Shown in pieces: positions 22,307-41,154 of a DNA stretch of 64,000 bases. The stretch spans positions 7,808-71,807 of the forward strand of contig NZ_BAABGX010000002.1 of assembly GCF_039541795.1 (NCBI RefSeq), read 5' to 3'. Below the pieces are notes generated by a model. That model was not told the origin of the DNA. It did no database searches and worked only from the letters and a program-made list of their open reading frames with translations. A program made the position numbers and the translations under genes. The stretch comes from Nibribacter koreensis. GTDB taxonomy: Bacteria; Bacteroidota; Bacteroidia; Cytophagales; Hymenobacteraceae. Each line of letters starts with the position of its first letter. The first letter of the stretch is position 1.

Positions 22307-22449
22307 CCTTTTAATGTCATAGTAGAAATACGGATTATAGAGGCAGTTGGACTTAGCTGAAGCGATGAAATTTTATAAATATTTTTCTTGTAAGTGACTG
22401 GTTCAAGAATAAATACGATTCTTCTTGGCGAGTGCTATACATGCATAAT

Positions 22450-22489
22450 CCGTTTTAGGGCTGTTTTCTGGAAAACGGCCCTAAAACGG
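22450..22489. repeat. 38-bp intergenic palindromic element with compensatory arm changes
   Basis: ccgttttagggctgttttctggaaaacggccctaaaacgg. Both arms carry complementary substitutions (GGG/CCC). Confidence 0.75.
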
Positions 22490-22512
22490 ATCATTGAAAA
22501 AGATTTTAGAGA

Positions 22513-23076
22513 TTACCCTTTCTGCACGTCATCTGCGGTGGGGCCGTACATGCCCGGCACCGGAACGTCCAACAGCCTCAAATATACAGACAGCTGCCCC
22601 CGGTGATGAATGAGGTGGTTCATGGCTACGCTTCTTATTACGTCGGCTTTGGGCCGCGTGAAGATAGTGTGCATTCCATGGCGCAAGGTCCAGGTTTGGG
22701 CAAAGTCATCTGTGCTGGCACTGGTAAGCGCCTGCGTCACGCTGGCCACAACTTGGTCATGGTAGGCCAGCAATTCTTGCGTGGACGAAGGCACAAACGG
22801 AGTATACTTTTGCTGGACAAAGTCCATCTCCTGGGTACGCAACACGGTGGCTACAAACATCTCCGGAATCTCTGCCACGTGTGCCGCTAATTTACCCAAG
22901 GGCATGCTCTTGGTATGCGGTTTCCAATCAAACTTATCTGCCGGAATCCGTTCCAGCATCCGGCGCGTGCTTTTGGCTTCCTGGGTAAATTCTTTGAGTA
23001 GAACCTGGTTTAATTCCATAAGTGCAGAGGTTAGAAATAGGGTAGCTGATAAGTAGTTTTGGTGCGTTTTTAACAA
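22513..23076 (-). CDS. DinB/YfiT-family protein (DinB_2 metal-dependent hydrolase fold)
   Basis: The sequence 'HLIHHRGQLSVYLRLLDVPVPGMYGPTADD' is the DinB-superfamily four-helix-bundle signature. Confidence 0.7.
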   Translation of the reverse strand: MLKTHQNYLSATLFLTSALMELNQVLLKEFTQEAKSTRRMLERIPADKFDWKPHTKSMPLGKLAAHVAEIPEMFVATVLRTQEMDFVQQKYTPFVPSSTQELLAYHDQVVASVTQALTSASTDDFAQTWTLRHGMHTIFTRPKADVIRSVAMNHLIHHRGQLSVYLRLLDVPVPGMYGPTADDVQKG

Positions 23077-23107
23077 AACCCTCTTGAGCTTCCTGTAATA
23101 ATTAAGT

Positions 23108-23521
23108 CTATTTTATTCTTTCATCTAGGTACGCATCATCCCCATTGACGAAGGCTTCTAGAAGTTGTGCTGCCTGTTCTTTGGTCTGGTCAAGTAGTTC
23201 TGTGGTGTATTTCTCATCATGCTTTTTGACCAAGCCAAACAGACTCTTCACTATTTTTGGACGTCTGTAAAAGACATAGAATATGGTTTGTCCCTTGTCA
23301 ATTAATGCAGACAAAAGCATTTCCCTTTTCTGGTCTCTTTGGGATATGTTTAACGTGGGAGAAGAATGGAAATCATCAGTTGCCGCCACTTCCATTTTAT
23401 GAAGCCATTTTTCCCATGGCCATTCCAAGAACGTCTGTTTTAGTTTATAACCTTCTATGTAGCCCAAATCTACCTCTTCAGGTTGGAATGGATCTGAAAA
23501 TGCATGGTGGAAAACGGCCAT
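23108..23521 (-). CDS. Hypothetical protein (137 aa), immediately downstream of the giant AAA+ gene
   Basis: Same strand as the giant AAA+ gene with a 47-bp gap. No recognisable motif. Confidence 0.45.
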   Translation of the reverse strand: MAVFHHAFSDPFQPEEVDLGYIEGYKLKQTFLEWPWEKWLHKMEVAATDDFHSSPTLNISQRDQKREMLLSALIDKGQTIFYVFYRRPKIVKSLFGLVKKHDEKYTTELLDQTKEQAAQLLEAFVNGDDAYLDERIK

Positions 23522-23568
23522 AGTATTTAGATTAAATGACTAGTCTTATAATAAACAAAATTGCTGTT

Positions 23569-26500
23569 TTAATTCTCTCCTATCATCAACTTGCTCTCTG
23601 CTTTCTTTTCTCCCAGCACTTGCTTTATTCCTTCGAGCCCCTCAGAAATGTTCTCCATCTGCGCCAGTACCTGCCCTACCTGGTTGCCCGCTCCGCCAAA
23701 ACCGTTGAGCTTGTTGTTGCGCACAAAGGTGACTTTGATGTCTTCCCAGCGCTGGATTTCCTCTGGTGTGGCAATGTTAATGAGCTGTTTGAACTTGAGC
23801 ATGTTGGCCTCGGCGCCGGTGGTCAAGGTCTGGGACTCTGACTGGTAATGGGACAAGATAAGCGTGTGCAGTTCCTGGTCGTTCATGATGGGCATCACCT
23901 TCTCGGCGAGCTTGTTCATGTTGCGATACGAGCCCTGCATCTTGAACGGCGGCTCAGTGCGGTACTCGTCTGCCTGGGCGGCAGATTTAATGTACTCCAG
24001 GTTCACCTTCAGGATCACGTCCCGTATGGTCAGCAGTTTCTTGAGCACCGACACGTACTCGTTGATTTCTTCGGCGGTGTGGCTGGCTTCCAGTTCCAAG
24101 CCTTCGCCGTTGCCCGTTTCCGCTAGCTTCACCAGTGCATACACGTCTTTCTGGCTCTTGGCAGAGAGTTTAGCCAGCACGGTGTTAGACGTCATGGCAT
24201 TCTCCAGATAGCTTAGCTTGAACACGTCTTCGGTGTCGCCCAGAATGTCACCCAGGTTGTAAATATCGGCGCGGTTGGCCAGCATGTCAGGGATTCTGAA
24301 CTTGTCGCCGGTCTCAGTGTACGGGTTACCAGCCATGACTACGCACACTTTCTTGCCTCTGAAGTCATACGTCTTGCTTCGGCCTTTGTACACGCCCTCA
24401 ATCTTGCGCTGGGCATCACACAGGGAGATGAACTTCTGCAAGAACTCAGGATTACAGTGCTGGATGTCGTCCAGGTAAATCATGACATTGTCGCCCATCT
24501 CAAAGGACAGGTTCAGCTTTTCCAGCTCCTCGCGGGCGGCGGCATTGGGGGCTTCGGTTGGGTCAAGCGCCGTGACCTGGTGCCCGATAGCCGGTCCGTT
24601 GATCTTCATGAAGATGATGCCCAGACGGTTGGCAATGTACTCCATGAGCGTGGTCTTGCCGTATCCCGGAGGCGACAAGAGCAAGAGCATGCCCATGAGG
24701 TCGGTGCGCTTGGTTTCGCCGGCTGTGCCCATCTGCTTGGCCAGGTTGGCGCCAATAAGCGGCAGGTACACCTGGTCAATGAGTTTGTTGCGTACAAACG
24801 AAGACATGACCCGAGGCTTGAACTCCTGCAGGCGCAGTTCCTCTTCAAACGTGACGGTCATCTGGTGCTTGAGCGCATGGAATTCTTTAAACTGGCTCAC
24901 CACCTGCGTCTCATACTGGCCCAACTTCTGCTGGAAGCCATGGAAATGCAACGGGTATTGCTGTTCCTGCAACAACGGGTGACTGCCTTGCATGCCTGCT
25001 AAGGTCTCGCGCAGATTTGCGTGCACCACTTGCTTGGGCTTTAACTCCTGCAAGAGCAACAACACCGCCGCCTCGGGCACATATTCTTCTGCGTCTGCTT
25101 GATTAGTTTGAGTGGCAAAGGCTTTCAGCCAATGTGCCATCAGTTCATATTGCTCTACTTTGTTCTCTTCTAAGGCCCCGGCAGATGCCTCAAACATGGC
25201 CCAGGCCTTTTTCTCTGTGAGGTACTGATGGAAGTTCTGCACCAGCTCGGCGGCCAGTGCACTCGTCACAAACTGGTCACCGCGGGTAAGCTCAAAGAAA
25301 AGATACTCGCCGGCCGCGGTGGCATTGGCTTCTGGTAATAAACCGGTCTCCTGCTGTAAAGCCTGTAGCTCACGTTGTAAATCTGCCTTGATGTTGTCAA
25401 ACTGATGCGTTTCTGGGAACACCTGCAAAATGGCGCCCACGCCTTTGAGCTGATGATGGAACAGTTGTTTTTGGCCTTCTTTCATGAAAACAGCCCAAAA
25501 ACAACGGGCGGCGGCGCGGTCAACGGCTGTGTAGCGGAGCAAGTCTGCGGTTTTAAACAAACGCACCAAGGTACTTAAAATTAGCACCGCGTCATGGTCG
25601 TGCACGCCTTTCAAATACCCTTCATTAAAGCGCACGGACATGAATTTCTGCACGTATTCCGTCAGCTCCTCCGCTTTAAGTTTATGCAGTTCATCCAGGG
25701 TGAATAGACGTAGACTTCCTTCTGCGGCCTCTCCCGTAGCAGACGAATTTTTAGCTAGTTGCGCGGCTTGCAGAATCTGGAAGGCCAAGTATTCGGCACG
25801 ATAGACTTGGTTGTTCTCTGAGATAAGCGACTGCTCCCAAACGGGTCTGTAACTCAGGAAACGCTCATCGGTGATTTTCTCAAAGAAGCTGGTGCCGGTG
25901 AGGTGGTAGTACATGGCGTCCTCGCGGTGCACAATGCTCAGTTCCAGCGGCTGGGTATTCACCGTGAAATGGTGCGTCCCGAACTTGAGCACGTTCTGCC
26001 CGTCCACGAACAGCTCGCTTTTGTCTTTGAGCTGGCGTACGGCGTCTTCGCGTAACGTTTTCAGGCGGCTCTGGATGGCATCTGCCTTCACGGTATCGCC
26101 CATGGCCAAGAGCTCGTCTACGGTGGTGCGCACCTTCTCCAGCATTAAGTCAGACGCGAAGTAGCCGTTAATCTCAGCCACGGTGTCTAGCTTGCTGATG
26201 CGGCTTTGTACGGCTTTGAGAATGCGGTCGGCGGCTTGTTGCAGGGTGGTGGCGCGTTTGTTGCGGGCTTCCTGCAGGGCTACTTTCTTGCTTTCAAACG
26301 CAGAGTAAATCTCTTCGCGCTTGTCTGCAATGATTTCTAAAAAGGCGTCAAACTCAGAGAAGCGCCCTTCCAGCTCCTCCAACTGCACCATGAGCTTGGT
26401 CAGGTACTCTTCGCACTTCTGAGGCGTGTCACAGACGTCCAAAAAGTTGATGACGCTCTGACTGATGAGCTTGATTTGGGCATTAAATTCGGCCTGACCT

Positions 26501-28554
26501 TCAGAGCTCAGCAACTCTTGGCGTTTGCGTTTAAGGGTAGCTTTGGTTTTGTTAAAGGAGGCGTAGATGGTAGAAATGGCGTCTACAATGCGCGTGGTTT
26601 GGGTAGCGTCCTCAATCTTGAGGTTGCTTACAATCTCAATGAGCATTTCCAGCTCACTGCTCACGCCCGCAATCTCTTTCTCGGTGGCATCTGCTTCTAC
26701 CACTTTGGCAATCTTGTCAATGCCCTGCGTGATCTCCCCTACCCGTTTTTCATAGGGCACCAGGGCATCTGGCTTGAGCAAGAAGGCCACCGTCTGGTTG
26801 GCAATCTCCTGACTGAAGCCCTGCAACTGCGCCTCATAGTCTTCAATGCGCGTCAAGTCTGCGTAGCGCAGTTCCTTTAAAGAAATGACCTCGCCGCGCA
26901 CGGCACGCAGATCAGCCAGGGACTTGACAAAGTCATTGATGTGCCCGTTGCTCTGGACCTTCAGCTTGGATATCAAGTCACCAGCCAGGCCCAACACCTG
27001 GTCTACCTGCGCTTGTGTGCTTTTGCGTATGCTGATGACTTTCTCAAACTCCTCCACCGCGGCGGTGGCCGTCTGCCGGATGGCACCTACTGGTTCTGCC
27101 AAACCGAACGTCTCTTTCTGGTTCAGCCAGTGATACGAGTCCAGCAGGTCTGTAGTAATTTTAATGAGGTCCAGGTACAGGTTGTCATAGGAATCCTCTT
27201 TGTTGACCAGCGTCAGAATCTCGGTGCACTCGGCCATGGCCTGCACAATCTCCTTGTTGCCTATCTTATATAGGTAAGAGTCCTTGGTAACTGGTATGCT
27301 GAAGTTAGAGCCAATGTACGGCGTCTGCCAGATCTGGAGCGCATGGTGCTTTTTGGGTTCTTCGTCTGCCCTGAAATAGCATAACTCGCCGTTCTCATAA
27401 ATGGCGTAGCCGTGGCAGATGATGGGGCTTTCAATCTTCTGGGTGATCAGGTTGTAGCTCAACAGCAGGTACACGCCCGAATCCTTGTTGTAGAAGACGT
27501 ACAGGAAATCTTCGCCGTTGGGCGAGGTTATGCGCTTCTCAAACAACATCTCCTGCAAGCCGTTGTCAAAAGACTTGAACTCGCCGGTTTGCAGGTAATA
27601 GCCATACGCGTAAATGATGCCTTGGCTTTCTGGCAAAAACACGCAACAGTCCTGGATGGCGTCAATGCGGCGCGCTTCCTTCAGTTTGGCGTTGTAGACA
27701 ATGTAGCGGTAGGCATTCTCGCGGTACGGCCTGATCTTGAGCAGAATGAGGTTACCGATGATGGAATAATACAGCTCTGAGTCGTCCAGGGTCTGGTCTT
27801 TGTCCTCCACCGGCTCTGAGTAAATGCCCTGGCCCGAGTCAGTGTTGTCCTCTACCTTGATGGTAAGGTCGCCGTTGATGGTTTCTACAAAGACTTTGTC
27901 CTCAATGGAGATGTGCGGGTGCTTGCCTTTGCGCTGGGCCTCGCGGGGTACGCGCTTCCAGGCGAAGTCGTGCTGATTGGGGAACTGGTACTCATGGTCT
28001 GAGCGGTTGTCCAGATAGGTGAGCGTACCGCCCTGAATGGCCCATTTAAAGGTCTTGATGTCATTAACGCCTTTGCCAATCCTGAACACCATGAACAGGT
28101 GCACGCCCATGACGGCAAACTTGACAAACTGCGTGTTCTTGTAGTATTTGTACAGCTTCTGGAATTCGTCCTGAAAGGCGGCGTTCTGGATGAGGTCCAG
28201 TGGCTGGTGATGGAACTGGTGCCCTTCATAAGAATAGACACTGAACACGTCGCTCAGCTCTATTTCTGTTTTTAAGCCCAGGTGCACGTTGTAGCCAAAC
28301 AGCAGGAAATTTCCCACCGGCACCATGTCATAGGGCACGCAGTTGTGCTCCGTAGTGACACGCTCGGTGGCCAGCAACTTGGTCTCAATCGCTCCGAAGA
28401 CCTCTTTCCGTTCCTGGTTTAGCTGGTCCAGCAGACCGCGCAACTCCCCGCCACTTTTGGCCAGACGGTTACGCAGAATCTCATAGGTGCCGCCTTCTAG
28501 TTGAACTGGATTGGTTGTGGAAGAGGTATTATTTTCAGAAGTAATAGTGCTCAT
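23569..28554 (-). CDS. Giant multidomain protein (1661 aa) with a C-terminal AAA+ ATPase module of the MoxR/McrB/dynein (AAA_5) type, an N-terminal beta-rich domain and a long central helical region
   Basis: Uninterrupted 4986-nt ORF. Walker A 'LLLLSPPGYGKTT' lies near residue 1235. Walker B 'VMIYLDDIQHCNPE'. Sensor 1 'VVMAGNPYTE'. An Arg-finger-like motif 'RIPDMLANRADIY'. The N-terminal roughly 450 aa are beta-strand rich; the central roughly 700 aa are helical or coiled-coil. Confidence 0.8.
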   Translation of the reverse strand: MSTITSENNTSSTTNPVQLEGGTYEILRNRLAKSGGELRGLLDQLNQERKEVFGAIETKLLATERVTTEHNCVPYDMVPVGNFLLFGYNVHLGLKTEIELSDVFSVYSYEGHQFHHQPLDLIQNAAFQDEFQKLYKYYKNTQFVKFAVMGVHLFMVFRIGKGVNDIKTFKWAIQGGTLTYLDNRSDHEYQFPNQHDFAWKRVPREAQRKGKHPHISIEDKVFVETINGDLTIKVEDNTDSGQGIYSEPVEDKDQTLDDSELYYSIIGNLILLKIRPYRENAYRYIVYNAKLKEARRIDAIQDCCVFLPESQGIIYAYGYYLQTGEFKSFDNGLQEMLFEKRITSPNGEDFLYVFYNKDSGVYLLLSYNLITQKIESPIICHGYAIYENGELCYFRADEEPKKHHALQIWQTPYIGSNFSIPVTKDSYLYKIGNKEIVQAMAECTEILTLVNKEDSYDNLYLDLIKITTDLLDSYHWLNQKETFGLAEPVGAIRQTATAAVEEFEKVISIRKSTQAQVDQVLGLAGDLISKLKVQSNGHINDFVKSLADLRAVRGEVISLKELRYADLTRIEDYEAQLQGFSQEIANQTVAFLLKPDALVPYEKRVGEITQGIDKIAKVVEADATEKEIAGVSSELEMLIEIVSNLKIEDATQTTRIVDAISTIYASFNKTKATLKRKRQELLSSEGQAEFNAQIKLISQSVINFLDVCDTPQKCEEYLTKLMVQLEELEGRFSEFDAFLEIIADKREEIYSAFESKKVALQEARNKRATTLQQAADRILKAVQSRISKLDTVAEINGYFASDLMLEKVRTTVDELLAMGDTVKADAIQSRLKTLREDAVRQLKDKSELFVDGQNVLKFGTHHFTVNTQPLELSIVHREDAMYYHLTGTSFFEKITDERFLSYRPVWEQSLISENNQVYRAEYLAFQILQAAQLAKNSSATGEAAEGSLRLFTLDELHKLKAEELTEYVQKFMSVRFNEGYLKGVHDHDAVLILSTLVRLFKTADLLRYTAVDRAAARCFWAVFMKEGQKQLFHHQLKGVGAILQVFPETHQFDNIKADLQRELQALQQETGLLPEANATAAGEYLFFELTRGDQFVTSALAAELVQNFHQYLTEKKAWAMFEASAGALEENKVEQYELMAHWLKAFATQTNQADAEEYVPEAAVLLLLQELKPKQVVHANLRETLAGMQGSHPLLQEQQYPLHFHGFQQKLGQYETQVVSQFKEFHALKHQMTVTFEEELRLQEFKPRVMSSFVRNKLIDQVYLPLIGANLAKQMGTAGETKRTDLMGMLLLLSPPGYGKTTLMEYIANRLGIIFMKINGPAIGHQVTALDPTEAPNAAAREELEKLNLSFEMGDNVMIYLDDIQHCNPEFLQKFISLCDAQRKIEGVYKGRSKTYDFRGKKVCVVMAGNPYTETGDKFRIPDMLANRADIYNLGDILGDTEDVFKLSYLENAMTSNTVLAKLSAKSQKDVYALVKLAETGNGEGLELEASHTAEEINEYVSVLKKLLTIRDVILKVNLEYIKSAAQADEYRTEPPFKMQGSYRNMNKLAEKVMPIMNDQELHTLILSHYQSESQTLTTGAEANMLKFKQLINIATPEEIQRWEDIKVTFVRNNKLNGFGGAGNQVGQVLAQMENISEGLEGIKQVLGEKKAESKLMIGEN

Positions 28555-28640
28555 GGTGGTAAAGGTTGTACCTCACCCCCAGTCCTCTCTTAGATGAGAG
28601 TATACTAATTTATTTGGGTGAAGTAGAATTTGGTACAAGT

Positions 28641-28679
28641 CCGTTTTTGGCTTGTTTCTGAGAAATCAGGCTAAAAACG
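28641..28679. repeat. 38-bp intergenic palindromic element
   Basis: ccgtttttggcttgtttctgagaaatcaggctaaaaacg. Confidence 0.7.
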
Positions 28680-28765
28680 ACTGTTTAATTAAGAATTCAA
28701 TATTCAATTTTACTTTATCCTGAGGCTCAATATCGAGTCAATGGAATAAGGCGCGTAGCCTCTAC

Positions 28766-29341
28766 CTACTTTCTCGTTTTATAAGAGATGAGTGAAAATA
28801 TTTCAGGATTCTGGCTTGAGCATTTTATCGTCACACTATCACCTATTGAGAGGTTTTTATCATTCCAAATTTCCTGATGATACTGTTTTCCAGATAATGT
28901 ATATTGAAATACTGCGTACTCCCTGCTGTTTCGACCCGTCTTCATGTAAATAGTTTCTACTTTTCCAGATACCACCTCGCCATATTTCTCCAATTGTCCA
29001 TTTTGGTAAAAGGTAGAAATTGCAAAAAGTGAGAAAAACATTAGGAAAAGGAGTATAACGCCCAACAATACATTACTAATTCTACCCCATCTACTATCAG
29101 GAAAAACTTGAAGGCGCCATACACCGAACCCTATAGTACTTATCATCACTAGACCAATGGCCATTTTTGGAAGGACACTGTCGTATGTATGAGAATAAAA
29201 TACATGTAAGAGAACACCAATAACAAACGCCAAAGCTAATCCCCACGCAATCAATCGGTTTTGAGAAGCCTCGCGGGCTTTTATCATTTCTCTTACTCGC
29301 CTAATTTGGTCAGCGGATGGTCGCTTAGTTTGTGGGCTCAC
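28766..29341 (-). CDS. DUF3592-like membrane protein (paralog 1)
   Basis: Three to four N-terminal TM helices plus a C-terminal beta-rich domain 'EKYGEVVSGKVETIYMKTGRNSREYAVFQYTLSGKQYHQE...IKCSSQNPEIFSLI'. It is a paralog of the adjacent gene. Confidence 0.55.
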   Translation of the reverse strand: MSPQTKRPSADQIRRVREMIKAREASQNRLIAWGLALAFVIGVLLHVFYSHTYDSVLPKMAIGLVMISTIGFGVWRLQVFPDSRWGRISNVLLGVILLFLMFFSLFAISTFYQNGQLEKYGEVVSGKVETIYMKTGRNSREYAVFQYTLSGKQYHQEIWNDKNLSIGDSVTIKCSSQNPEIFSLISYKTRK

Positions 29342-29403
29342 TTTAATGATCAGTTTTTAACTTATTGTTTAAAACTTCCTAGCATATGGCTTGAACTAAA
29401 AGT

Positions 29404-29946
29404 TTAATACAGATTATTCTCTTGAGGGAAGACCATAGTAAACAATTCAGGATCTTGACTTGAGCACCTCAATTGGATTCTTTCGCCAATTTTGAGATGG
29501 TATTTCTCATTATTCACTTCCTGCACATACCTTTTAGTATTTATATAGTAGTGAATCACAGCTGTTTCAGTGGTGGATTTATAACCTCGTTTCAAATAGA
29601 TCAAATCTACTTCCCCATTGGCAGAAACACCATATTTCTCTAACTGATAGCTTTCATAAGCATCTTGCCCCTGGATCAACCCAAAGAAAAAAACTGCATA
29701 AATCAGAAGACCTATCCAATAATTAGCAAACCTATTCCACTTTGATTTGGGAATGACATAAAACCAAGAGTAATGCACAGCAGCAATACTCCCAATCGGA
29801 AACCAAATACCCAAGTCAGTTATATAACTGTCATAATGGTAAGCATGAAAAACAAACAAGTAGACACCAACAAAAAACGATGGAATGGCTACCCACGTGG
29901 CAACTACTCGTCCATCTATTGATCTACTTCTGGGTTTGCTTCTCAA
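29404..29946 (-). CDS. DUF3592-like membrane protein (paralog 2)
   Basis: Same architecture as paralog 1. The C-terminal segment 'EKYGVSANGEVDLIYLKRGYKSTTETAVIHYYINTKRYVQE...LRCSSQDPELFTMV' aligns with the neighbour. Confidence 0.55.
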   Translation of the reverse strand: MRSKPRSRSIDGRVVATWVAIPSFFVGVYLFVFHAYHYDSYITDLGIWFPIGSIAAVHYSWFYVIPKSKWNRFANYWIGLLIYAVFFFGLIQGQDAYESYQLEKYGVSANGEVDLIYLKRGYKSTTETAVIHYYINTKRYVQEVNNEKYHLKIGERIQLRCSSQDPELFTMVFPQENNLY

Positions 29947-29985
29947 TCTGTTTAATTACCGTTACTACCTACTGCAACGCCCCCC

Positions 29986-30666
29986 TTAGTTCTTCAACTG
30001 GGCAAGTTGTTGTTTCAGTTCTTCTACCTTATTGGCCTCAGACTGCTGGTCACGTTTAAGTTTGATTTCTTTCTCGCGGGCGGCCTGCTTGTAGTTTTTG
30101 AATTCTTCGCTTACTTCTTCAAAGGCGTCTATCTTCTCCTGGGCCTCGGCGTTGCTTTTCTTGTACATGACAGCAAAAACCGCCGCTAATACGCCTAAAC
30201 CTAGAATGATGCCCAAGCTCAGCCACACGTACACTTGCTTGTCCATGTCAAGGCCCAGCACAGAAAGGCTGGCTACGTCATGGGCGCCTTGCTGAATCTG
30301 CTGCTCTTTCTTGGCGTTCTCCTGCTGTAAGGCCACTACCTTCGCTTTCTGGTCGGCTAGCTCTTGTTGCGTTTTGGCCAGGGCCACGGCGGTTTCTTTG
30401 CCTGCATTCTTGATGCTCTGTTCCCTTACCCGTAAAGTGTCCTGAACGCTTTTAGATAAGGCATCAAAACTGCTTTCCCGCACTACTCTATAGGCCTGGC
30501 CGTTTTCTGAGTAAGAAGAAGACCTGAACTTTAAGGAGTTGAACTGTTGTGGCAAGGTATAGGCGGCCCGGTTTTTGGCCGGCGCGGCAGGTTTGGCTGG
30601 AGCTTGCGCCATGGCAGATGTCAAGACCGAAGCACTAAACAAAAGGGAAAGGGTAAGAGCTTTCAT
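29986..30666 (-). CDS. Secreted/bitopic coiled-coil protein, hypothetical
   Basis: Signal peptide MKALTLSLLFSASVLTSAMAQA. Q/K/E-rich coiled coil on either side of a TM helix 'VWLSLGIILGLGVLAAVFAVMY'. Confidence 0.5.
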   Translation of the reverse strand: MKALTLSLLFSASVLTSAMAQAPAKPAAPAKNRAAYTLPQQFNSLKFRSSSYSENGQAYRVVRESSFDALSKSVQDTLRVREQSIKNAGKETAVALAKTQQELADQKAKVVALQQENAKKEQQIQQGAHDVASLSVLGLDMDKQVYVWLSLGIILGLGVLAAVFAVMYKKSNAEAQEKIDAFEEVSEEFKNYKQAAREKEIKLKRDQQSEANKVEELKQQLAQLKN

Positions 30667-30807
30667 GGGGATAAAATCAAAGTCAAAAAATATTACCTCT
30701 GAAAATAAAGCTACTGATTTCCGGTGAAGGGTAAAAGCATACGCCCACTCTTCTCAGGTTTTTCAAATTTTTTTCCAGGGTAATACCATTCACAACGACC
30801 GCTCCCC

Positions 30808-30845
30808 CGCTTTTAGCCTCTTTTCCTGAAAATAAGCCAAAAACG
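30808..30845. repeat. 38-bp intergenic palindromic element
   Basis: cgcttttagcctcttttcctgaaaataagccaaaaacg. Confidence 0.7.
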
Positions 30846-30914
30846 ATTCTTCCCTCAAGCCTCCTTCCTGCGCCTCCTCTCACTTGGAGAAGAGGCGCTT
30901 AGAAAGAGTTTTCT

Positions 30915-33086
30915 TTAGTTTAAGGTATACACCGGCTTGTCACCAAGACCCAGGGCCGTGGCCGTAGACGTCAGTTCCTTGAGCGTGTTGGCCGTGGCGT
31001 CATCCAGGGTCTTCTGTTGCATCATCTTCAAGAGCAGGGCAGAAACGCTTAGGTTACGCACATCTTCGGTGTCCATGCCAAACTGCGTGATGAAGCGCTG
31101 TAGGTTGGCTTTGAAGTCAATGTGGCCGTTGCCGTCCTTCTGGAAGAAGGCTTCTTTCACGGTACCCAGCACTTCGCTGTTGGTCACCAGGCGGTCTACC
31201 TGCTTGCCCTTGGTGATGGAGCCTACTATCTGATCAAAGAACATGGTCTCACCGCCTACAATGTCAATCTTGGCAGCTTTGAGGGCCTCAGAAATCACGC
31301 TGGCCTGGGCCGCGGCAATCTCTTTCTGGATGTCAATGTGGGCCAGTTCAATGGCTTTGTCTTTCTCCAGGCGTAGCTTGAACTCTTCGTGCTCTTTGCC
31401 TACGCCGTCCAGTTTCTTCATGGCGTCTGCCTTCTCTTCAATGCCTTTGGCTTCTACGGTGAACTTCTCTCCGCTTACACGGGCTTCCGCTAAACCGCGC
31501 TTCTCCTCGGCAGAGGCCAGGTTGGCGATGATAGAAGCGTCTGCCAAGCCTTTCTCCTGGGTTACTTTGGCGGCTACCATTCCTAGTTTCTCGTCGGCTT
31601 CGGCTTGGGCCTCTGCTTGAACTTTGGTGGCTTTAGCGGTGGCTATGGCCTGGCGCTCGGTTACGTTGGCTTCGGCCTCGCCTTCTTTCTGACGGGCGGC
31701 GGCTTTGGCTTCCATTACCTGGGCTTCAGACAAACCAACGGCGGCGGCTTGCGTGGCCTCGGCTTCAGCCATTACTTTGATGGCTTGGGCGCGGTTGATG
31801 GAAGAGGTCTTCTCGGCTTCGGCGTCAATCAACAACTGCTCAGCTCTAAACTCAGCGGCGGCTTTGGCAGCCTCAGCACCTTTGATCTCTTTCACCAGGG
31901 CTTCTTCGGCTTCCATAGTGGCCGTCGTGATGGCGACAGATTTGATACGCTCGGCTTCGGCGAAGGCTTTGGTGTCTTTGATTTTCTCTTCTTCCTCTAC
32001 CACCGCTTTCTCTACTACCACGCGCTCTTTGATGATGGCCTGGATGTTCTTACGCTCTTCTTCTACGGCTTTATCTTTCTCAATCTGAGCCAGAGCCACA
32101 ATGCGTTGCATTTCGTTTTCTTCTAACAGCTTAGCTTGCTCTACGCGTACCGTTTCAATGGCATCTGTACGTTGCTTGCTACGCTCGGCCACCAAAATCT
32201 GGCGGTCACGGTTCTGTTCTGATATCTGCACTTCTTCATCGGTGGCAATGCGGGCTCTTTCTGAGATCATGCGTTGCTCCTGGGTTACTTTCTCAATCTC
32301 GGCAGATTCTCTGGCTTTGATGGAGGCAATCTCGCGGCGTTGCTTTTCCTGGTTCTCGGCTAGTTGCTTTTCCAGCTCCAGAATAGTCTCTTGCGCTTCT
32401 ACGTTTTGCTTTTTGATGGTCTTCTCGCGCTCGCGTTCAATCAGGTTGGCCTGTACTTTCTGCTTGGCAGTCAGGTCAATGATCTTCTTGATACCTTCGG
32501 CGTCCAGGATGTTGTTCTCATTGAGGCTAGAAAGCGGCGTCTGCTCTAAGTAATCAATGGCACAGTCATCCAAAATATAACCGTTCAAGTCTGTTCCAAT
32601 GGTGGCCAAGATCTGGCGCTTGAACTCGTCGCGGCTTTGGTACAGGTCCACGAAGTCAAAATGCTTGCCCACGGTCTTCAAGGCTTCTGAGAACTTGGCA
32701 TCAAAAAGGCTCTCTAAGGCCATTGGGTCTGAGGCGCGCTTACAGCCAATGGACTGCGCCACGTTCACCACGTCCTCGGCGGTTTTATTCACGCGCACAA
32801 AGAAGTTCACTTTGATGTCGGCGCGCAGGTTGTCTTTACAGATCAAGCCTTCTGTGCCGGTGCGGGCAATGACAATGGTTTTGAGGGTGATGTCCATCAT
32901 TTCCAGCTTGTGGATGATGGGCACCACGAAGATGCCGGAGAAGGATACTTTGGTATCGCCCATACCGGTACGCACCATGGCTTCGCCCTGAATGGCCTTG
33001 CGGTACATCTTTATGATGACAATAAAGAGCCCGAAGACAATCACCGCCAGCATGATGGTGGTGGCTAGAGTAAGAGATTGAAACAT
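30915..33086 (-). CDS. yqiK: Flotillin-family SPFH/band-7 protein (YqiK-like) with extended E/A-rich coiled-coil tail
   Basis: N-terminal TM helix, then an SPFH domain ('GEAMVRTGMGDTKVSFSGIFVVPIIHKLEMMDITLKTI...'), then a very long EA-repeat coiled coil. Confidence 0.8.
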   Translation of the reverse strand: MFQSLTLATTIMLAVIVFGLFIVIIKMYRKAIQGEAMVRTGMGDTKVSFSGIFVVPIIHKLEMMDITLKTIVIARTGTEGLICKDNLRADIKVNFFVRVNKTAEDVVNVAQSIGCKRASDPMALESLFDAKFSEALKTVGKHFDFVDLYQSRDEFKRQILATIGTDLNGYILDDCAIDYLEQTPLSSLNENNILDAEGIKKIIDLTAKQKVQANLIEREREKTIKKQNVEAQETILELEKQLAENQEKQRREIASIKARESAEIEKVTQEQRMISERARIATDEEVQISEQNRDRQILVAERSKQRTDAIETVRVEQAKLLEENEMQRIVALAQIEKDKAVEEERKNIQAIIKERVVVEKAVVEEEEKIKDTKAFAEAERIKSVAITTATMEAEEALVKEIKGAEAAKAAAEFRAEQLLIDAEAEKTSSINRAQAIKVMAEAEATQAAAVGLSEAQVMEAKAAARQKEGEAEANVTERQAIATAKATKVQAEAQAEADEKLGMVAAKVTQEKGLADASIIANLASAEEKRGLAEARVSGEKFTVEAKGIEEKADAMKKLDGVGKEHEEFKLRLEKDKAIELAHIDIQKEIAAAQASVISEALKAAKIDIVGGETMFFDQIVGSITKGKQVDRLVTNSEVLGTVKEAFFQKDGNGHIDFKANLQRFITQFGMDTEDVRNLSVSALLLKMMQQKTLDDATANTLKELTSTATALGLGDKPVYTLN

Positions 33087-33098
33087 AAGCTTGATTAA

Positions 33099-33719
33099 TT
33101 AAAGGGATTCAAAAGGTTCTATTAAATACAGTTGGTTTTCGGGGAGGTAATCTATGACCAAGGCGGTTTCGCCTTTCTTGGCAAGATGGCCTTGGGTAGT
33201 TTTGACGTTGAGCAACAGCGGCGAGCCTTTGGTTTTGACCGAGGCCTGCCCTACCTGGTCTTCATTGGCAGGTAATAGAATGGTGCACAGTTGGCCAATC
33301 ACGTTCATTTTGGGCGCTTCCTCGGTTTCCATGACCGTGAACAACTTCACGAAAGGCCAGGTAAGCAACTTAGCCAGAAACAAGCACACAAACCCAATGG
33401 GAAATAGTAGCAATACTCCCAACCAGCTGTCCTGTGTGCCCAAGGTATGGTTCACGCCCACGCTCAAGGCCCAAAACGGCAGCGCGAAGAATGACAGAAA
33501 AAACATGAGCGGCAGGCGGCCCAGGTTAAAGAAGGCCAGAGCCGAGTTCAACCAGGCAATGGAGGCAATTCCGTCAGCGTCCGCGTCTAAGTCAATGTCC
33601 AGAGAGCTAATGTCCAGCAGGCCTACAATCACAATGACCCAATAGATAAGGACAAAAAGAAGCAAGCCAGAGGCAAAGGCGTTTGCGCTGGAAAAAGAGG
33701 CTTGTAAAAGTTCAATCAT
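33099..33719 (-). CDS. yqiJ: NfeD-like / YqiJ-family inner-membrane protein with C-terminal OB-fold
   Basis: Four TM helices and a C-terminal beta domain 'GQASVKTKGSPLLLNVKTTQGHLAKKGETALVID'. It sits directly upstream of the flotillin gene, which is the conserved NfeD-flotillin pairing. Confidence 0.7.
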   Translation of the reverse strand: MIELLQASFSSANAFASGLLLFVLIYWVIVIVGLLDISSLDIDLDADADGIASIAWLNSALAFFNLGRLPLMFFLSFFALPFWALSVGVNHTLGTQDSWLGVLLLFPIGFVCLFLAKLLTWPFVKLFTVMETEEAPKMNVIGQLCTILLPANEDQVGQASVKTKGSPLLLNVKTTQGHLAKKGETALVIDYLPENQLYLIEPFESL

Positions 33720-34039
33720 ACGCGGGTGGAATCTCTCCTATAAATCTACACATTCTCCTTTGATTCTTCTGGCATTTGAAGCCGACGGACAGAAATAATT
33801 CCTGCCGCCTGCCCTCACAACGCGTTCTGCCCCTTGCGTCTACCTTTATATCAGCAGAACGCCAAAGGTTAGTCAGCATGCTCCTTTTTCTATTTGCACC
33901 GGCGGTACCTTGGCCATCATTTGCATTTCTGCGGGAGTGGTCAACAGCCAAATGCCCATGGCCGCGAAAAACATAAACCCAAGTTTGCCCACCGTTTCTA
34001 GAGTTAAAAGTTAAGAGGAATGAGTTTAGGGTTGGTGGT

Positions 34040-34077
34040 CGTTTTTGGGCTGTTTTCTGGAAAACAGCCCAAAAACG
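34040..34077. repeat. 38-bp intergenic palindromic element, perfect
   Basis: cgtttttgggctgttttctggaaaacagcccaaaaacg. Confidence 0.8.
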
Positions 34078-34081
34078 CTCC

Positions 34082-34828
34082 TTATTCTGCTGGCGTGGCA
34101 GTGGTGGACTGCGGTTCTGACGGCGTGGCAAAGCCTAGCTTGGCTTTAAGAGCCTCTACTTCTTTGGCAGACTTCTGCGCCGAACTGCTTTCCAGCGCCT
34201 TCTCAATCTCCTGGTCAATGGAACGGCTCTCGTTGGCAATCTCTCCATACGACTCGGCCAAGGCTTCTTCTACCGCCACTTTCTCCTTCATGCGCTCCAG
34301 CAGGGCTACCGTACCAGATGAGTCTATCTGCGCCAGTTGCTTGTTGATGGTCTTGGTGGCGTTGCTCACGGTCACCCTGGACTTTAACACGCGCAGTTCA
34401 TTCTCCCATTTGCTGATGGTAGACCTAAGCGTCTTAATGTTGGTGTCCATCTGGGCCACAGATTTCTCAAACTTAGCCTGGTCTTCTTGCGCAGAAGCGG
34501 CCAACGCCGTGTTCTCTTCTTTCTTCACCAGCGCCTCGCCGGCCAGACGATCCGCGTCTGCAGAGCTTAATTCGCCTTTGTGGGCCCGTTGCAAGAGTTG
34601 TACCGCCTTGTTTTCATAATCCTGCGCCTTGGCGCGGTAGGTTTCCACGTCGTTGCGCGACCGGATGGCCATGGACTTAACCTCGGCTAGGCCTCTCAGG
34701 CTTTTGTCCAGGTCTTCTTTCATGTCCCGGATGCCCTGCTCGGTTAACTTGATGGGGTTCTCCAGTTGGTCTACCGCTGAGTGGGCCTCGGCCTGGCCTA
34801 TCTTAAAGATGCGTTTTAAAATATTCAT
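34082..34828 (-). CDS. pspA: PspA/IM30/Vipp1-family protein (phage-shock protein A; bacterial ESCRT-III superfamily)
   Basis: 248 aa. The N-terminus 'MNILKRIFKIGQAEAHSAVDQLENPIKLTEQGIRDMKEDL' matches the PspA pattern (M..F.R......N..LD..EDP....Q.IR.M...L). All-helical coiled coil. Confidence 0.8.
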   Translation of the reverse strand: MNILKRIFKIGQAEAHSAVDQLENPIKLTEQGIRDMKEDLDKSLRGLAEVKSMAIRSRNDVETYRAKAQDYENKAVQLLQRAHKGELSSADADRLAGEALVKKEENTALAASAQEDQAKFEKSVAQMDTNIKTLRSTISKWENELRVLKSRVTVSNATKTINKQLAQIDSSGTVALLERMKEKVAVEEALAESYGEIANESRSIDQEIEKALESSSAQKSAKEVEALKAKLGFATPSEPQSTTATPAE

Positions 34829-34839
34829 GTGCGTGGTCT

Positions 34840-35238
34840 TTAGTTTTTTGAGAATTGAATGAGTTGGTCTGAGTATTCGCTCAGTAAAAGCGCAAGCGAG
34901 TTGAGGGAGGCCTCAATCTCATGAAGGTCCAATCGGGCCATTTGCAGGGTGTCCCTGAAGATGAGCTTCTGCCCGGTCTCATCCAGCACGAAGGCGCCAT
35001 GAATGATGTCCCGGTTTTTCTGGAGCAGGCTTTGGCAGATTTCCACGGTCAGCTGGGGCAGGTCCATCAGGTACTGCTCCATAATAAGGAGCGGGTCTGT
35101 ACAGCCAATAACCAGGTTGGTGATGCCCAAGCTTTCCTTGTCTACCACAAACACGCAGTCTCTGGAGTCTTCCAGCTTAATCTGGAAGTCCAGTTCCAGC
35201 AGGTAATCTTTCACTTTCAGGAAGTAGTTGTTTTCCAT
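34840..35238 (-). CDS. YbjN-like domain protein (putative sensory-transduction regulator fold), hypothetical
   Basis: 132 aa. The start overlaps or abuts the pspA stop. YbjN-family proteins are frequently encoded next to pspA. Confidence 0.45.
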   Translation of the reverse strand: MENNYFLKVKDYLLELDFQIKLEDSRDCVFVVDKESLGITNLVIGCTDPLLIMEQYLMDLPQLTVEICQSLLQKNRDIIHGAFVLDETGQKLIFRDTLQMARLDLHEIEASLNSLALLLSEYSDQLIQFSKN

Positions 35239-35252
35239 AGTATGTCTTTATG

Positions 35253-35465
35253 CTATTGCTCTGTTTCTGAATAGGTAGCAGGCCTTAGATTGTATATCTT
35301 TTGAAATAAAAAATGCACCAGGTAATAGATGAAGCCCCAGATAAGTAAGTCTACCAGAAACTTACCCGTGATAATGCCTTCTTTAAAAACATGATAGTCA
35401 AACCCCAGGGCTGCCTTCACCACTGTCACCAAAATGAAGGTGATGAAAAGCTTGAGTGTATACAC
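35253..35465 (-). CDS. Small two-TM membrane protein, hypothetical
   Basis: 70 aa with two hydrophobic helices. First gene of the minus-strand pspA block. Confidence 0.4.
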   Translation of the reverse strand: MYTLKLFITFILVTVVKAALGFDYHVFKEGIITGKFLVDLLIWGFIYYLVHFLFQKIYNLRPATYSETEQ

Positions 35466-35777: not shown

Positions 35778-36572
35778 ATGTCGTGCATCGGGAAGAACAT
35801 AAAGAAAATTAGGACGGTCAAGAATTTGAGCCAGGCCGGTTTCGCGCAACTCTTTGATCTGGCGCGCCCTAGCGTGGGTGCCTATGAAGAAGGCCGCTCT
35901 GAACCTAAGATTGAGACGCTGGTACAGATTGCCCGGCATTTTGGGGTGAGCCTGGACTTAATGATCACAAAGGAACTCACCATCAATGACTTGTATGGGT
36001 TTGACATCTTCAAGCGAGATCTACCCCAAAGCCAACTGCTCAAAAAAGTAGCAGAGCCATCAATCTCTGCTTCCTCTACCGTGTTAGTGACGGCCCAAGC
36101 TTTGCCCGCCTATCTTTCACAGGGACAGGACGCCACGTTTCTCCAATCCCTGCCCGTTATTCAGTTACCTAGCCAGGTGCAGACGCTTCATAGAGCGTTT
36201 GAGCATACCGGTCTAGAGATGGAATACCAGCAGCAAGGCATTTTAGAAGGTGATGTTCTATACGCGGCCTCTGTGCCCTTGAATGCGCATCTTTTACAAC
36301 CGCAAGCCGTGTACGTGGTGGTGACGGCCACCCAAATCGTGACCCGGCGCTACCAGGGGCTGAGCCACCATAACGAGCTGTTTTTAAAGGCGGATAATCC
36401 AGCGTACGAGGTTGCGTTGGTACCCATGGGAGACGTGAAAGAGCTTTGGCAGGTGCAGGGCGTGTATAGTACTCGCTTAACTTTACCCACTCCTATAGAA
36501 ACACGTTTAGCCAAGCTGGAGCACCAGGTACAGGAACTGCAACTGCAAAAGAAAGCAGAGCAGGCAAAGTAA
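35778..36572 (+). CDS. XRE-family HTH regulator with C-terminal S24 (LexA/cI)-like domain
   Basis: N-terminal HTH 'IRTVKNLSQAGFAQLFDLARPSVGAYEEGRSEPKIETLVQIARHFGVSLD'. The C-terminal beta domain resembles the S24 peptidase fold. Confidence 0.65.
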   Translation: MSCIGKNIKKIRTVKNLSQAGFAQLFDLARPSVGAYEEGRSEPKIETLVQIARHFGVSLDLMITKELTINDLYGFDIFKRDLPQSQLLKKVAEPSISASSTVLVTAQALPAYLSQGQDATFLQSLPVIQLPSQVQTLHRAFEHTGLEMEYQQQGILEGDVLYAASVPLNAHLLQPQAVYVVVTATQIVTRRYQGLSHHNELFLKADNPAYEVALVPMGDVKELWQVQGVYSTRLTLPTPIETRLAKLEHQVQELQLQKKAEQAK

Positions 36573-36704: not shown

Positions 36705-37190
36705 ATGTCTCTGAACTCCTTCTTCTCTCCCTCTTCTACTAAAATAAAGAACGGCGTCTATTTCAGTCCCGGTGAAGAGTGCCTGAACGCCATCATCTCT
36801 TTTATTCTGGCGGCCAACGCCTCCTTGAAAATCTGCGTGTTCACCATTTCTGATGACCGCATTACCCGGGCTATTTTGCAGGCCTACCAGAGAGGCATTG
36901 CCGTAGAACTGCTCACGGACAATGAGAAGCTGTTTGACAAGGGCTCAGACATCAGGGAGCTGGCCATGGCGGGGATTGAGATTAGAGTAGACAATACGCC
37001 CAACCACATGCACCATAAATATGCGGTCATTGACCAGAAGCACGTGCTCACGGGCAGTTACAACTGGACCAGAAGCGCCGCGCTCTACAACCATGAGAAC
37101 GTGCTGGTCTCCTCAGACCCGCAACTGGTAAAGCCTTACTTAATAGAGTTTGACACGCTATGGGCAGAGATGGTGGCCTTTGAAGGCTAA
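36705..37190 (+). CDS. Single-HKD phospholipase-D-superfamily nuclease (Nuc-like)
   Basis: 161 aa. HKD motif 'HHKYAVIDQKHVLTGSYNWTRSA' (HxKx4Dx6GSxN). The size matches Nuc-type dimeric endonucleases. Confidence 0.75.
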   Translation: MSLNSFFSPSSTKIKNGVYFSPGEECLNAIISFILAANASLKICVFTISDDRITRAILQAYQRGIAVELLTDNEKLFDKGSDIRELAMAGIEIRVDNTPNHMHHKYAVIDQKHVLTGSYNWTRSAALYNHENVLVSSDPQLVKPYLIEFDTLWAEMVAFEG

Positions 37191-39822: not shown

Positions 39823-40935
39823 CTAGGCGCGTTCTTCTTCCTGCCCGTCTTTCTTATGGTATTTAGAATTGGCGTTGGCCAAAAGCAGCTGCCGGATGCG
39901 GGCTATGTGCAGTTTGAGCTCGTCTGCCCGCTCCTGTTGGCTTTCTGACCAGTAGTGGTGGCCTCTGCGCCGGTCTTGTTGAGCCATGGCTTGGAGCATG
40001 GTGCGGCGCTCCTCTAGCATGCGCATGGCAATCCAAAGTGTCTCTTCCAGTGCTTCTACATTGGCATTCAGGAAAGAATCTTGCGTGAAGGCGTGCCCCA
40101 CGTGGCACCGGTAGTGCTTTACATGCCCGGTGCTTACCTCCCATAAGGCGCCGCCGCAGTCTGGGCAGGAAAAAGCCGAGCGGGGTCCCATCAGTTCTGT
40201 GTCTGTTATTCCCCCCGAGTCCAGCATGAGGCGTTCGGCTATCTGGGCTTCATAGGCAATGTCTTCGGGAATGACTTCTTGTGAGGAAGCCGGCACATAC
40301 ACCAGTTCCTTCAACAGCTCGCCCATCTCTGCCACTTTCACCACATAGTCCACCTCCATCATGTCCAGCACGCTCTGGGGCATGTCTGGGTATTCTGCCT
40401 CTGCGGGGCTTTGCACCATGGTGATGCCACCGCTGCGCTTGATCATCTCCATGCCCACGGTGCCGTCCTGCAACATGCCGGTGAGCACAATGCCAATGAC
40501 CCTGCTGTCATAGGCTGCGGCGGCAGACCTGAACAAGGGATCAATGGCGGGCCTGAACAGGTTTTCCCTAGGCCCTTTGGTCACCAGCATCCTTCCCTTT
40601 TGCAGCAGCAGGTGGTTGTCTTGGGGCACAAAATACACATTACCGTGCTCTATGGCCTGCTCATGCTGGGCCACCTGGCACTGCAACGGCGTGCATTTAC
40701 TTAAGCGCTCCACCAGAATCTGGGAGTTGGATTCTCTGGCCAGGTGCTGGACTATGAAAATGGACGCAGGCAGGTTGGCAGGCAACTGGGACAGCAGGCT
40801 GGTGAGCACGCTCATACCGCCGGCAGAGGTGCCAATGACAATGATATCATGGTGCAAAAATTTCATCTTGTGGCGGTGGTGGCTTGTCCTGTTCATACGA
40901 GCAATGGGTACCAAGAGGTAATGCAAGGAAGGCAA
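39823..40935 (-). CDS. Stand-alone CheB-type protein-glutamate methylesterase domain protein with C-terminal Zn-ribbon/helical extension (no REC domain)
   Basis: 'IIVIGTSAGGMSVLTSLL...IFIVQHL...GIVLTGMLQDGTVGMEMIKRSGGITMVQSP' is the CheB methylesterase catalytic core. C-terminal 'CPDCGG...HYRCHVGH'. Alternative start MKFLHHD at 40866. Confidence 0.75.
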   Translation of the reverse strand: MPSLHYLLVPIARMNRTSHHRHKMKFLHHDIIVIGTSAGGMSVLTSLLSQLPANLPASIFIVQHLARESNSQILVERLSKCTPLQCQVAQHEQAIEHGNVYFVPQDNHLLLQKGRMLVTKGPRENLFRPAIDPLFRSAAAAYDSRVIGIVLTGMLQDGTVGMEMIKRSGGITMVQSPAEAEYPDMPQSVLDMMEVDYVVKVAEMGELLKELVYVPASSQEVIPEDIAYEAQIAERLMLDSGGITDTELMGPRSAFSCPDCGGALWEVSTGHVKHYRCHVGHAFTQDSFLNANVEALEETLWIAMRMLEERRTMLQAMAQQDRRRGHHYWSESQQERADELKLHIARIRQLLLANANSKYHKKDGQEEERA

Positions 40936-41154
40936 TTAACCGCCTGCCCCTGTAGGACCAAATCACGGCCCGGGCCTCCGTATTAATCCGTATTCTTGTT
41001 TGGAACGACCTCTTTTTAGTGGAGTGTGAGGGGTAATTTGTACCTTGTAGGATTCAAAAACACAGGCTTGGTGTGTGGTTTAAGACAGGTCCTCTCCTGC
41101 TTTTCTGACGCCCCGGCGCAAGACCCATGCCTGCCTGCTACGTACACCAATTCA

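Follow-up and report, generated by a model that had tools for sequence, protein, structure and literature searches.

Ravi et al. (2024, PMC11237479) described a gene neighborhood, exemplified by Dokdonia donghaensis (ANH61663.1), that encodes a CesT/Tir protein, PspA, a YqiJ/YuaF protein, a Band-7 coiled-coil flotillin and a beta-propeller coiled-coil AAA+ protein. In their supplementary table the genes are listed in order, with a divergent regulator entered as '<-cHTH+Protease', and some operons of this kind also harbor a phospholipase D (PLD) gene. Popp et al. (2022, PMC9239133) linked PspA with Band-7/FloT, NfeD and helix-turn-helix (HTH) regulators, and in Bacillus subtilis the link between PspA and the membrane is reported to depend on the SPFH protein YdjI (PMC8581546). 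A review from 2025 states that a Vps4-like ATPase appears to be absent in bacteria. Here we describe a cluster of membrane-related genes in Nibribacter koreensis (Bacteroidota), located in a window of 64,000 nucleotides (nt), the whole stretch of DNA that was analyzed, whose positions are used as coordinates throughout. The cluster lies in a run of 12 minus-strand genes (21049 to 35465) and is the N. koreensis copy of the neighborhood class published by Ravi et al. Since this core arrangement has already been published, the window represents a further example of it, not a discovery.

A conserved core and its extension in the Bacteroidota

The open reading frames (ORFs) of 84 loci were searched with the proteins of the window, and gene orders were counted; 80 genomes had been sampled from the at least 564 DUF3686 loci in GTDB. 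The order yqiJ-like gene, flotillin gene, AAA+ gene was found in 62 of the 68 loci whose upstream sequence exceeds 3.2 kb, and this triad is present in Bacteroidota, Planctomycetota, Verrucomicrobiota, Desulfobacterota, Clostridia, Kiritimatiellota and Omnitrophota. The longer order CesT, PspA, YqiJ, flotillin, AAA+ was counted in 23 of 66 loci, which come from several orders of the Bacteroidota and from no other phylum, and a divergent HTH-S24 regulator accompanies the CesT-PspA genes in every one of these 23 loci. The ancient core of the cluster, shared by many phyla, is made up of a YqiJ/YuaF-type membrane protein, a flotillin of the YqiK type and a dedicated AAA+ protein, soluble and of about 1650 residues, and the CesT-PspA pair with its divergent regulator is an addition made before this triad in the Bacteroidota. 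Lineage-specific cargo is the only element of the locus that is unpublished.

An earlier note on this DNA had listed a small transmembrane protein, a YbjN-like protein, PspA, an NfeD protein, a flotillin, a coiled-coil protein, two DUF3592 paralogs and a giant AAA+ protein as a locus in an arrangement not described before. All of these genes are present on the minus strand in the order given, and they do form part of a consecutive run; the count of ten genes does not hold, as the list names nine and the run comprises twelve. The giant AAA+ gene is indeed the last of those listed, but at 23569-28554 it lies outside the interval of 28766-35465 that was assigned to the locus. The claim of novelty has to be given up, for the core order including both the giant AAA+ protein and the divergent regulator is found in Ravi et al.

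The median gap is 14 nt between the CesT and PspA genes (23 loci), 66 nt between the PspA and YqiJ genes and 17 nt between the YqiJ and flotillin genes, with overlaps in some loci. Such short gaps and overlaps are operon-like and fit with co-transcription. In N. koreensis, 11 nt separate the CesT-like gene from pspA and 12 nt the yqiJ-like gene from the flotillin gene. Elements of the repetitive extragenic palindrome (REP) type are responsible for three long gaps (362, 248 and 211 nt), which divide the cluster into four blocks, and with these gaps a single transcript over all of the genes is only putative in this species. The blocks might be independent operons that are adjacent by chance, a view to which the three long REP-containing gaps lend some weight; a scan for sigma-70 promoters and terminators was uninformative, performing no better than on shuffled sequence, with a model that does not cover the promoters of Bacteroidota. 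Against this, the order is kept in 23 loci that represent several orders of the Bacteroidota, and seven phyla retain the triad; neighboring genes are often 0 to 20 nt apart or overlap. Chance adjacency is refuted at the level of co-localization, and independent operons brought together by chance are extremely unlikely. The genes constitute a real, evolutionarily conserved neighborhood, and the comparison with related genomes that the earlier note had called for revealed the co-localization that it anticipated.

Identities of the encoded proteins

The protein encoded upstream of pspA had been considered YbjN-like. A match to YbjN does exist (E 2.8e-6), but that to CesT_Tir_1 (PF22550) is far stronger (E 3.5e-51). 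The nearest solved relative of the PspA protein is Vipp1/PspA (6zvr; E 6e-13 over residues 2 to 236). It is not an equivalog of Escherichia coli PspA, scoring 39 bits with TIGR02977 against a cutoff of 243, and no match to the PspB, PspC or PspF families was found among the scanned neighbor proteins. The locus is in this respect not a proteobacterial Psp system (PspF-PspABC).

Direct sequence searches against Pfam, NCBIfam and the PDB yielded no significant match for the flotillin or the YqiJ-like protein. The flotillin sequence itself has no Pfam match even at E 10, and the YqiJ-like protein alone gives a sub-threshold Pfam match (E 0.01). Orthologs of both were collected from the 80 genomes and aligned, and the profiles were compared with the E. 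coli proteins by hhalign. The YqiJ-like profile (31 orthologs) matched E. coli YqiJ over its full length with a probability of 97% (E 8e-11); 12 of the 31 orthologs match YqiJ_N, a single one matches NfeD (PF01957) weakly (E 0.0049), and the beta-rich C-terminal segment can be aligned with its counterpart in YqiJ. The flotillin profile (32 orthologs) matched E. coli YqiK over 385 columns with a probability of 100% (E 1.9e-40). Residues 19 to 427 of the flotillin align with residues 24 to 423 of YqiK, which places an SPFH domain behind an N-terminal membrane anchor. Band_7 is matched by 4 of the 32 orthologs (best E 3.3e-13), and the source databases name the protein 'flotillin family protein / YqiK'. 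These profile-profile comparisons uphold the assignment of the pair to YqiK and YqiJ that had been made earlier.

The AAA+ protein harbors DUF3686 at its N terminus (E 3.4e-191, Pfam) as well as DUF7902 and AAA domains; it is soluble, with no transmembrane segment, and is 100% identical to a database protein of N. koreensis. Homologs from at least seven phyla share 47 to 89% identity with it over about 1640 residues (47 to 60% across phyla). The Walker A motif (GYGKTT, G1297 to T1302), D1362-D1363, N1410 and R1428 are invariant in 17 homologs, and the segment after Walker A is similar to p97/VAT. The AlphaFold2 model of residues 1225 to 1661, with a mean predicted local distance difference test score (pLDDT) of 72, matches AAA+ folds. 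Both the AAA+ module and its position downstream of the flotillin gene were confirmed against the neighborhood description of Ravi et al.

Orthologs of the divergent regulator carry Peptidase_S24 matches, the S24 domain of the N. koreensis protein being too degenerate for Pfam. In an alignment with E. coli LexA, Ser119 corresponds to Glu in the N. koreensis protein and to Glu, Asp or Ala in most orthologs, and Lys156 corresponds to Arg in most members. Over the 23 loci, the Ser-Lys catalytic dyad of LexA/S24 proteins has been lost in the regulator and in most of its Bacteroidota orthologs, making self-cleavage unlikely. Judging from these alignments, the regulator is probably a pseudo-protease repressor of the operon that acts without self-cleavage.

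NCBI and Pfam names label DUF3686 proteins 'DNA repair ATPase'. This raises the possibility that the cluster is a DNA-damage or repair locus, with which a weak resemblance between the P-loop region and RuvB, the HTH and S24 architecture of the regulator, the DinB-family gene at 22513-23076 and the neighboring PLD nuclease would also agree. The similarity to RuvB, however, is limited to about 45 residues around Walker A, and RecA-stimulated self-cleavage requires a Ser/Lys dyad that is missing from the regulator. The AAA+ gene goes together with two genes for integral membrane proteins in 62 of 68 loci, and with no gene of DNA metabolism. Our literature search found no paper on DUF3686, and the name has no traceable experimental basis; it appears unfounded, conflicts with the constant linkage to flotillin and YqiJ, and may mislead annotators. 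A role of the cluster in DNA repair is extremely unlikely.

The variable gap, repeats and other neighbors

The two DUF3592-like proteins are 33% identical (E 2e-30). Paralog b scores 24.7 bits with DUF3592 (PF12158; E 4e-5), just below the gathering cutoff of 25.3 bits, and its 173-residue NCBI version carries a precomputed PF12158 match. Paralog a has no Pfam match, and several relatives in the DUF3592 subfamily likewise fall below the Pfam threshold. A word-indexed homology search with paralog b returned only the query itself; an exhaustive HMMER search revealed a subfamily of at least 150 representative clusters. The closest known relative, from Rufibacter hautae (P0243), occupies the same slot, is about 38% identical to both paralogs (38.6% to a) and has a GC content at third codon positions (GC3) of 0.37. 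The GC3 of the N. koreensis pair is 0.35 to 0.36, compared with 0.59 to 0.71 for the core genes, and the indel that harbors the pair (28679-29981) has a GC content of 0.375, compared with 0.497 for the window. In Nibribacter ruber, whose flotillin is 98% identical, the same gene order is found without the DUF3592-like genes, and about 140 nt replace the 1.3-kb indel (blastn); a REP element marks one of its edges. A recent duplication, which had been suggested for the pair, is at odds with an identity of only 33%, a GC3 of 0.35 to 0.36 and the absence of both genes from this sister species.

The gap between the flotillin and AAA+ genes varies from -11 to 3762 nt among the loci. Its contents in other genomes (L004, L008, L010, L022, L046, L053, L055, L062, L067, L084 and L090) include IS200 transposases, DUF559 and PD-(D/E)XK nucleases, AbiEii, ParE, SHOCT, an esterase, and GPP34 with an ABC transporter, and the gap behaves as an insertion hot spot. 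Absence from N. ruber, a foreign GC3 and unrelated cargo in the gap argue for hitch-hiking; on this view the DUF3592-like pair is cargo that evolves fast, is compositionally foreign and sits in a gap of variable content beside the AAA+ gene. The idea that the slot ORFs represent one hidden family was discarded, as they proved to be DUF559, PD-(D/E)XK, IS200, SHOCT, ParE and others, and a slot ORF of Pontibacter (L005:8615-9244) is not a relative of DUF3592. DUF3997 was matched by 1 of 31 scanned slot ORFs; that this is L005:9282-9701 of Pontibacter is a guess. On a metagenome contig (L093:183-1239), a DUF3997 gene follows a gene of the DUF3592 subfamily.

Genes for DUF3592-type proteins nevertheless recur beside the AAA+ gene: in N. 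koreensis (two copies), in R. hautae (one copy), in five Hymenobacter species (directly upstream in L013 and L089; 3 to 9 nt downstream in L010, L062 and L091) and, within the flotillin/AAA+ slot, in Aquimarina (L043). The adjacency persists though the side of the AAA+ gene switches, only two other DUF3592 matches were found in about 1.1 Mb of flanking DNA, and an AAA+ protein with no transmembrane segment would need a membrane tether. These proteins could thus be real, variable membrane partners (adaptors, tethers or sensors) of the AAA+/flotillin machine and not cargo. Against such a role, they are absent from N. ruber, Rufibacter tibetensis, Pontibacter, Adhaeribacter and three Hymenobacter loci (L003, L008 and L088), and none of the non-Bacteroidota loci examined has a DUF3592 gene within the slot or adjacent to the AAA+ gene. 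Their GC3 is 0.35 to 0.37, compared with 0.6 to 0.74 in neighboring genes, and the copies are only 33 to 38% identical where the neighboring flotillins are 85% identical. A more distant subfamily member (P0246) is not linked to any locus of this kind, and the repeated presence of DUF559, PD-(D/E)XK, IS200, AbiEii and ParE in the slot suggests that an insertion hot spot may explain the recurrence. A partnership is therefore possible but doubtful. In summary, the inclusion of the DUF3592-like genes in the locus gains from their recurrent adjacency to the AAA+ gene in other Bacteroidota and suffers from their absence in the sister species; the adjacency itself is unpublished and constitutes a small new lead.

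An abortive-infection function had also been raised in the earlier note. In other genomes, the genes gathered beside the AAA+ gene are of defense or mobile type and include AbiEii, ParE, restriction-like nucleases, a reverse transcriptase and an MmeI-type methyltransferase, the DUF3592 genes evolve fast, and the adjoining PLD gene is nuclease-like, with a generic similarity to DrmC (E 4.8e-12, PADLOC). In N. koreensis, however, what the nine cluster proteins yield with the PADLOC 2.0 models is no more than noise from coiled coils or P-loops (E 6e-4 or weaker), and only the neighboring PLD protein shows a generic DrmC likeness. The components belong to well-known families of membrane maintenance. 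The locus is single-copy and vertically stable, has the same flanking genes in Nibribacter and Rufibacter, and retains 47 to 60% identity across phyla, a pattern of housekeeping or stress genes and not of a mobile defense island. We consider an anti-phage or abortive-infection system very unlikely. In two Hymenobacter genomes (L088:11998-13812 and L089:12018-14972), the AAA+ gene is directly followed by genes for a reverse transcriptase and for MmeI-type restriction-modification.

The palindromes are genome-wide REP-type elements and not a feature of the cluster. The family is based on a 38-nt perfect palindrome (CGTTTTTGG..CCAAAAACG; consensus, CGTTTTTGGGCTGTTTTCTGGAAAACAGCCCAAAAACG) with 25 copies in the window, for example at 2926, 3895, 20503, 22451, 34040, 36593, 50731 and 58497, and none in 50 shuffles. 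Although long ORFs make up 70% of the window, 22 of the 25 copies lie outside them. The repeat is also present in N. ruber; in Rufibacter, only a chance-like match inside the AAA+ gene was found. Within the cluster, palindromes do stand between genes, as had been claimed, but at three junctions only (28642, 30808 and 34040) and not at each one. The extent given by the repeat finder for the copy next to pspA, 34040-34083, overlaps the first base of the stop codon.

As for the remaining genes (Table 1), Rufibacter and N. ruber are the only organisms in which homologs of the 70-residue transmembrane protein were found, and the same holds for the 226-residue coiled-coil protein (Rufibacter loci L001 and L092), whose Pfam matches are weak and sub-threshold. 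The gene for the 137-residue protein (GC3, 0.41) has counterparts in Rufibacter and N. ruber, where they follow the AAA+ gene, and in Adhaeribacter, where the counterpart lies between the flotillin gene and the AAA+ gene. In the PLD protein, HxKx4D and GSxN motifs are visible, and a homolog adjoins the locus in L001, L002, L004, L007, L015, L080, L085 and L090. Many Bacteroidota harbor a membrane ORF of 64 to 76 residues between pspA and yqiJ (L090:3351-3569, L088:2306-2527, L089:1873-2103 and L001:5608-5802), with PLDc_N in Pontibacter. A conserved gene at this position was considered and rejected; the ORFs have no obvious homology across genera, and N. koreensis has a 33-codon remnant beside a REP element (33720-34081). 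Further along the window (39823-44136), translations resemble, by eye, a CheB-like methylesterase and a divergent 1036-residue fusion protein of the CheB/CheR/PAS type.

Table 1. Features of the N. koreensis locus, in window coordinates
Feature	Position	Strand	Evidence or remark
Single-HKD PLD-superfamily protein, 161 aa, sporadic neighbor	36705-37190	+	PLDc_2, E 1.3e-29
Divergent XRE-type HTH regulator with degenerate S24 (LexA-like) C-terminal domain and C-terminal coiled coil	35778-36572	+	HTH_3, E 2.6e-11
70-aa protein with two hydrophobic segments, first gene of block	35253-35465	-	No Pfam match
CesT/Tir-like chaperone-fold protein, PspA partner	34840-35238	-	CesT_Tir_1 (PF22550)
PspA/IM30 (ESCRT-III superfamily) protein	34082-34828	-	PspA_IM30, E 3.5e-36
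Perfect REP-like palindrome at pspA stop codon	34040-34077		17-bp stem, -26.5 kcal/mol, z -6.8, no 3' U-tract
YqiJ/YuaF-type multi-transmembrane protein with C-terminal beta domain, NfeD-like flotillin partner	33099-33719	-	Profile match to E. coli YqiJ
YqiK-type flotillin, 723 aa: N-terminal transmembrane segment, SPFH, long Ala/Glu-rich coiled coil, C-terminal domain	30915-33086	-	
Degenerate REP-like palindrome between flotillin and coiled-coil genes	30808-30845		-14.5 kcal/mol
226-aa bitopic protein: signal peptide, coiled coil, transmembrane segment, coiled coil	29986-30666	-	
Indel of 1.3 kb with both DUF3592-like genes	28679-29981		blastn versus N. ruber (L085)
DUF3592-like membrane protein, paralog a, 180 aa	29404-29946	-	
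DUF3592-like membrane protein, paralog b, 191 aa as ORF (NCBI, 173 aa)	28766-29341	-	
Degenerate REP-like palindrome at indel edge, upstream of AAA+ gene	28642-28679		
1661-aa AAA+ protein: N-terminal DUF3686, coiled-coil middle (DUF7902), C-terminal AAA+ module	23569-28554	-	Pfam
137-aa soluble protein, possible accessory, 47 nt downstream of AAA+ gene	23108-23521	-	No Pfam match
DinB-family gene	22513-23076	-	
Desaturase gene, after DinB-family gene in the minus-strand run		-	

Proposed mechanism and comparison with known systems

A role in membrane integrity or envelope stress, as had been proposed for the cluster, is a reasonable reading of the presence of PspA, flotillin and YqiJ. The best explanation of our results, and in our opinion a reasonably probable one, is that the locus represents the published neighborhood and serves a membrane-maintenance mechanism involving flotillin, PspA and the AAA+ protein. 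In such a mechanism, the flotillin, aided by YqiJ, would build an SPFH scaffold on the inner membrane. The CesT-like chaperone may hold PspA until it is needed, after which PspA would polymerize on the damaged membrane. The AAA+ protein may spend ATP to assemble, remodel or recycle the flotillin or PspA polymers, in a manner analogous to that of Vps4 on ESCRT-III or of FtsH inside the HflK/C cage, and the regulator would repress the operon without self-cleavage. As the AAA+ gene is tied to flotillin and YqiJ in every phylum, and to PspA only in the Bacteroidota, the flotillin assembly is the likelier primary client. The role of YdjI in B. subtilis, the pairing of SPFH scaffold and AAA+ machine in HflK/C-FtsH and the apparent lack of a Vps4-like ATPase in bacteria speak in favor of such a mechanism.

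Several points weigh against this membrane-maintenance mechanism. The function of the cluster and each of the mechanistic steps are what we infer from the genes and their order. The N. koreensis cluster contains the three REP-containing gaps of 211 to 362 nt. The AlphaFold2 model of the flotillin N terminus, based on 20 close homologs, was unusable (pLDDT 55, below 50 in the SPFH region), and the profile-profile comparison with E. coli YqiK was used in its place. In the Walker B motif of the AAA+ protein (VMIYLDD, residues 1357 to 1363; 24467-24487), Asp replaces the usual catalytic Glu, the DD pair being invariant in 17 homologs. A Foldseek search with the C-terminal model listed NorQ/CbbQ (MoxR type) first, followed by RuvB, Vps4 and ClpA/B, with Vps4 in tenth place, and with TM-scores of only 0.2 to 0.35 these are generic AAA+ matches that do not fix the clade. 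Pfam gave no match to an MIT domain in the AAA+ protein, which does not present the combination of MIT domain and classical-clade AAA module typical of Vps4. The beta-propeller assignment for DUF3686 is taken from the paper of Ravi et al.

Conserved at 47 to 60% in at least seven phyla and almost always encoded with the flotillin/YqiJ pair, the AAA+ protein is an obvious candidate for the Vps4-like ATPase that bacteria seem to lack for PspA. One could go further and see in the DUF3686 AAA+ protein the Vps4 counterpart that bacteria are missing, a motor that would remodel or disassemble flotillin and PspA polymers, with the fast-evolving DUF3592 proteins as interchangeable adaptors or sensors in the membrane by which it would be recruited or triggered. 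We regard this more extensive scheme as unlikely.

HflK/C-FtsH is an SPFH cage that encloses an AAA+ machine. An SPFH scaffold with a dedicated AAA+ protein is common to that system and to the N. koreensis cluster, and the likeness is one of logic only: in contrast to FtsH, the N. koreensis AAA+ protein is a soluble one that lacks a protease domain, and it shows no relationship to FtsH outside the P-loop region. With ESCRT-III/Vps4, the cluster shares a PspA of the ESCRT-III superfamily, as indicated by its match to Vipp1, and an AAA+ gene in the same neighborhood. It differs in that the AAA+ protein has no MIT domain and matches Vps4 at a low rank and a low TM-score, and in that its gene tracks flotillin and not PspA.

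The yqiJ-yqiK genes of E. coli and yuaF-floT of B. subtilis have the same gene order and tight spacing, and there is homology at the profile level to both YqiJ and YqiK of E. coli. The E. coli yqiJ-yqiK locus, however, has no adjacent AAA+, PspA or CesT-like gene, and the N. koreensis flotillin is 170 residues longer and is missed by the Pfam Band_7 model. In E. coli yjfI-yjfJ (DUF2170 of the CesT superfamily and a PspA-family protein), a chaperone-fold protein is likewise encoded directly upstream of a PspA paralog; similarity between the N. koreensis PspA and YjfJ is weak (E 1e-6 over 81 residues), and that between the CesT-like protein and YjfI is not significant. Unlike the polyamine-type operons with yjfJ-like genes, the N. 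koreensis window has no polyamine genes. In Fulvivirgaceae bacterium BMA10 (L004:15077-19203), the AAA+ gene is directly followed by DUF4178, another gene, DUF350 and spermine synthase, a gene order that links the cluster to the polyamine-type operons with yjfJ-like genes and joins two of the PspA operon classes that are treated separately by Ravi et al.

The closest system remains the class described by Ravi et al. The N. koreensis cluster differs from it in being split by REP hairpins and in the addition of genes for the 70-residue transmembrane protein, the coiled-coil protein, the two DUF3592-like proteins and the 137-residue protein; no mention of DUF3592 was found in the text and supplementary table of that paper. 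The core components, their order and the divergent HTH-protease regulator are identical in the two, a PLD gene is sometimes attached, and both are from Bacteroidota.

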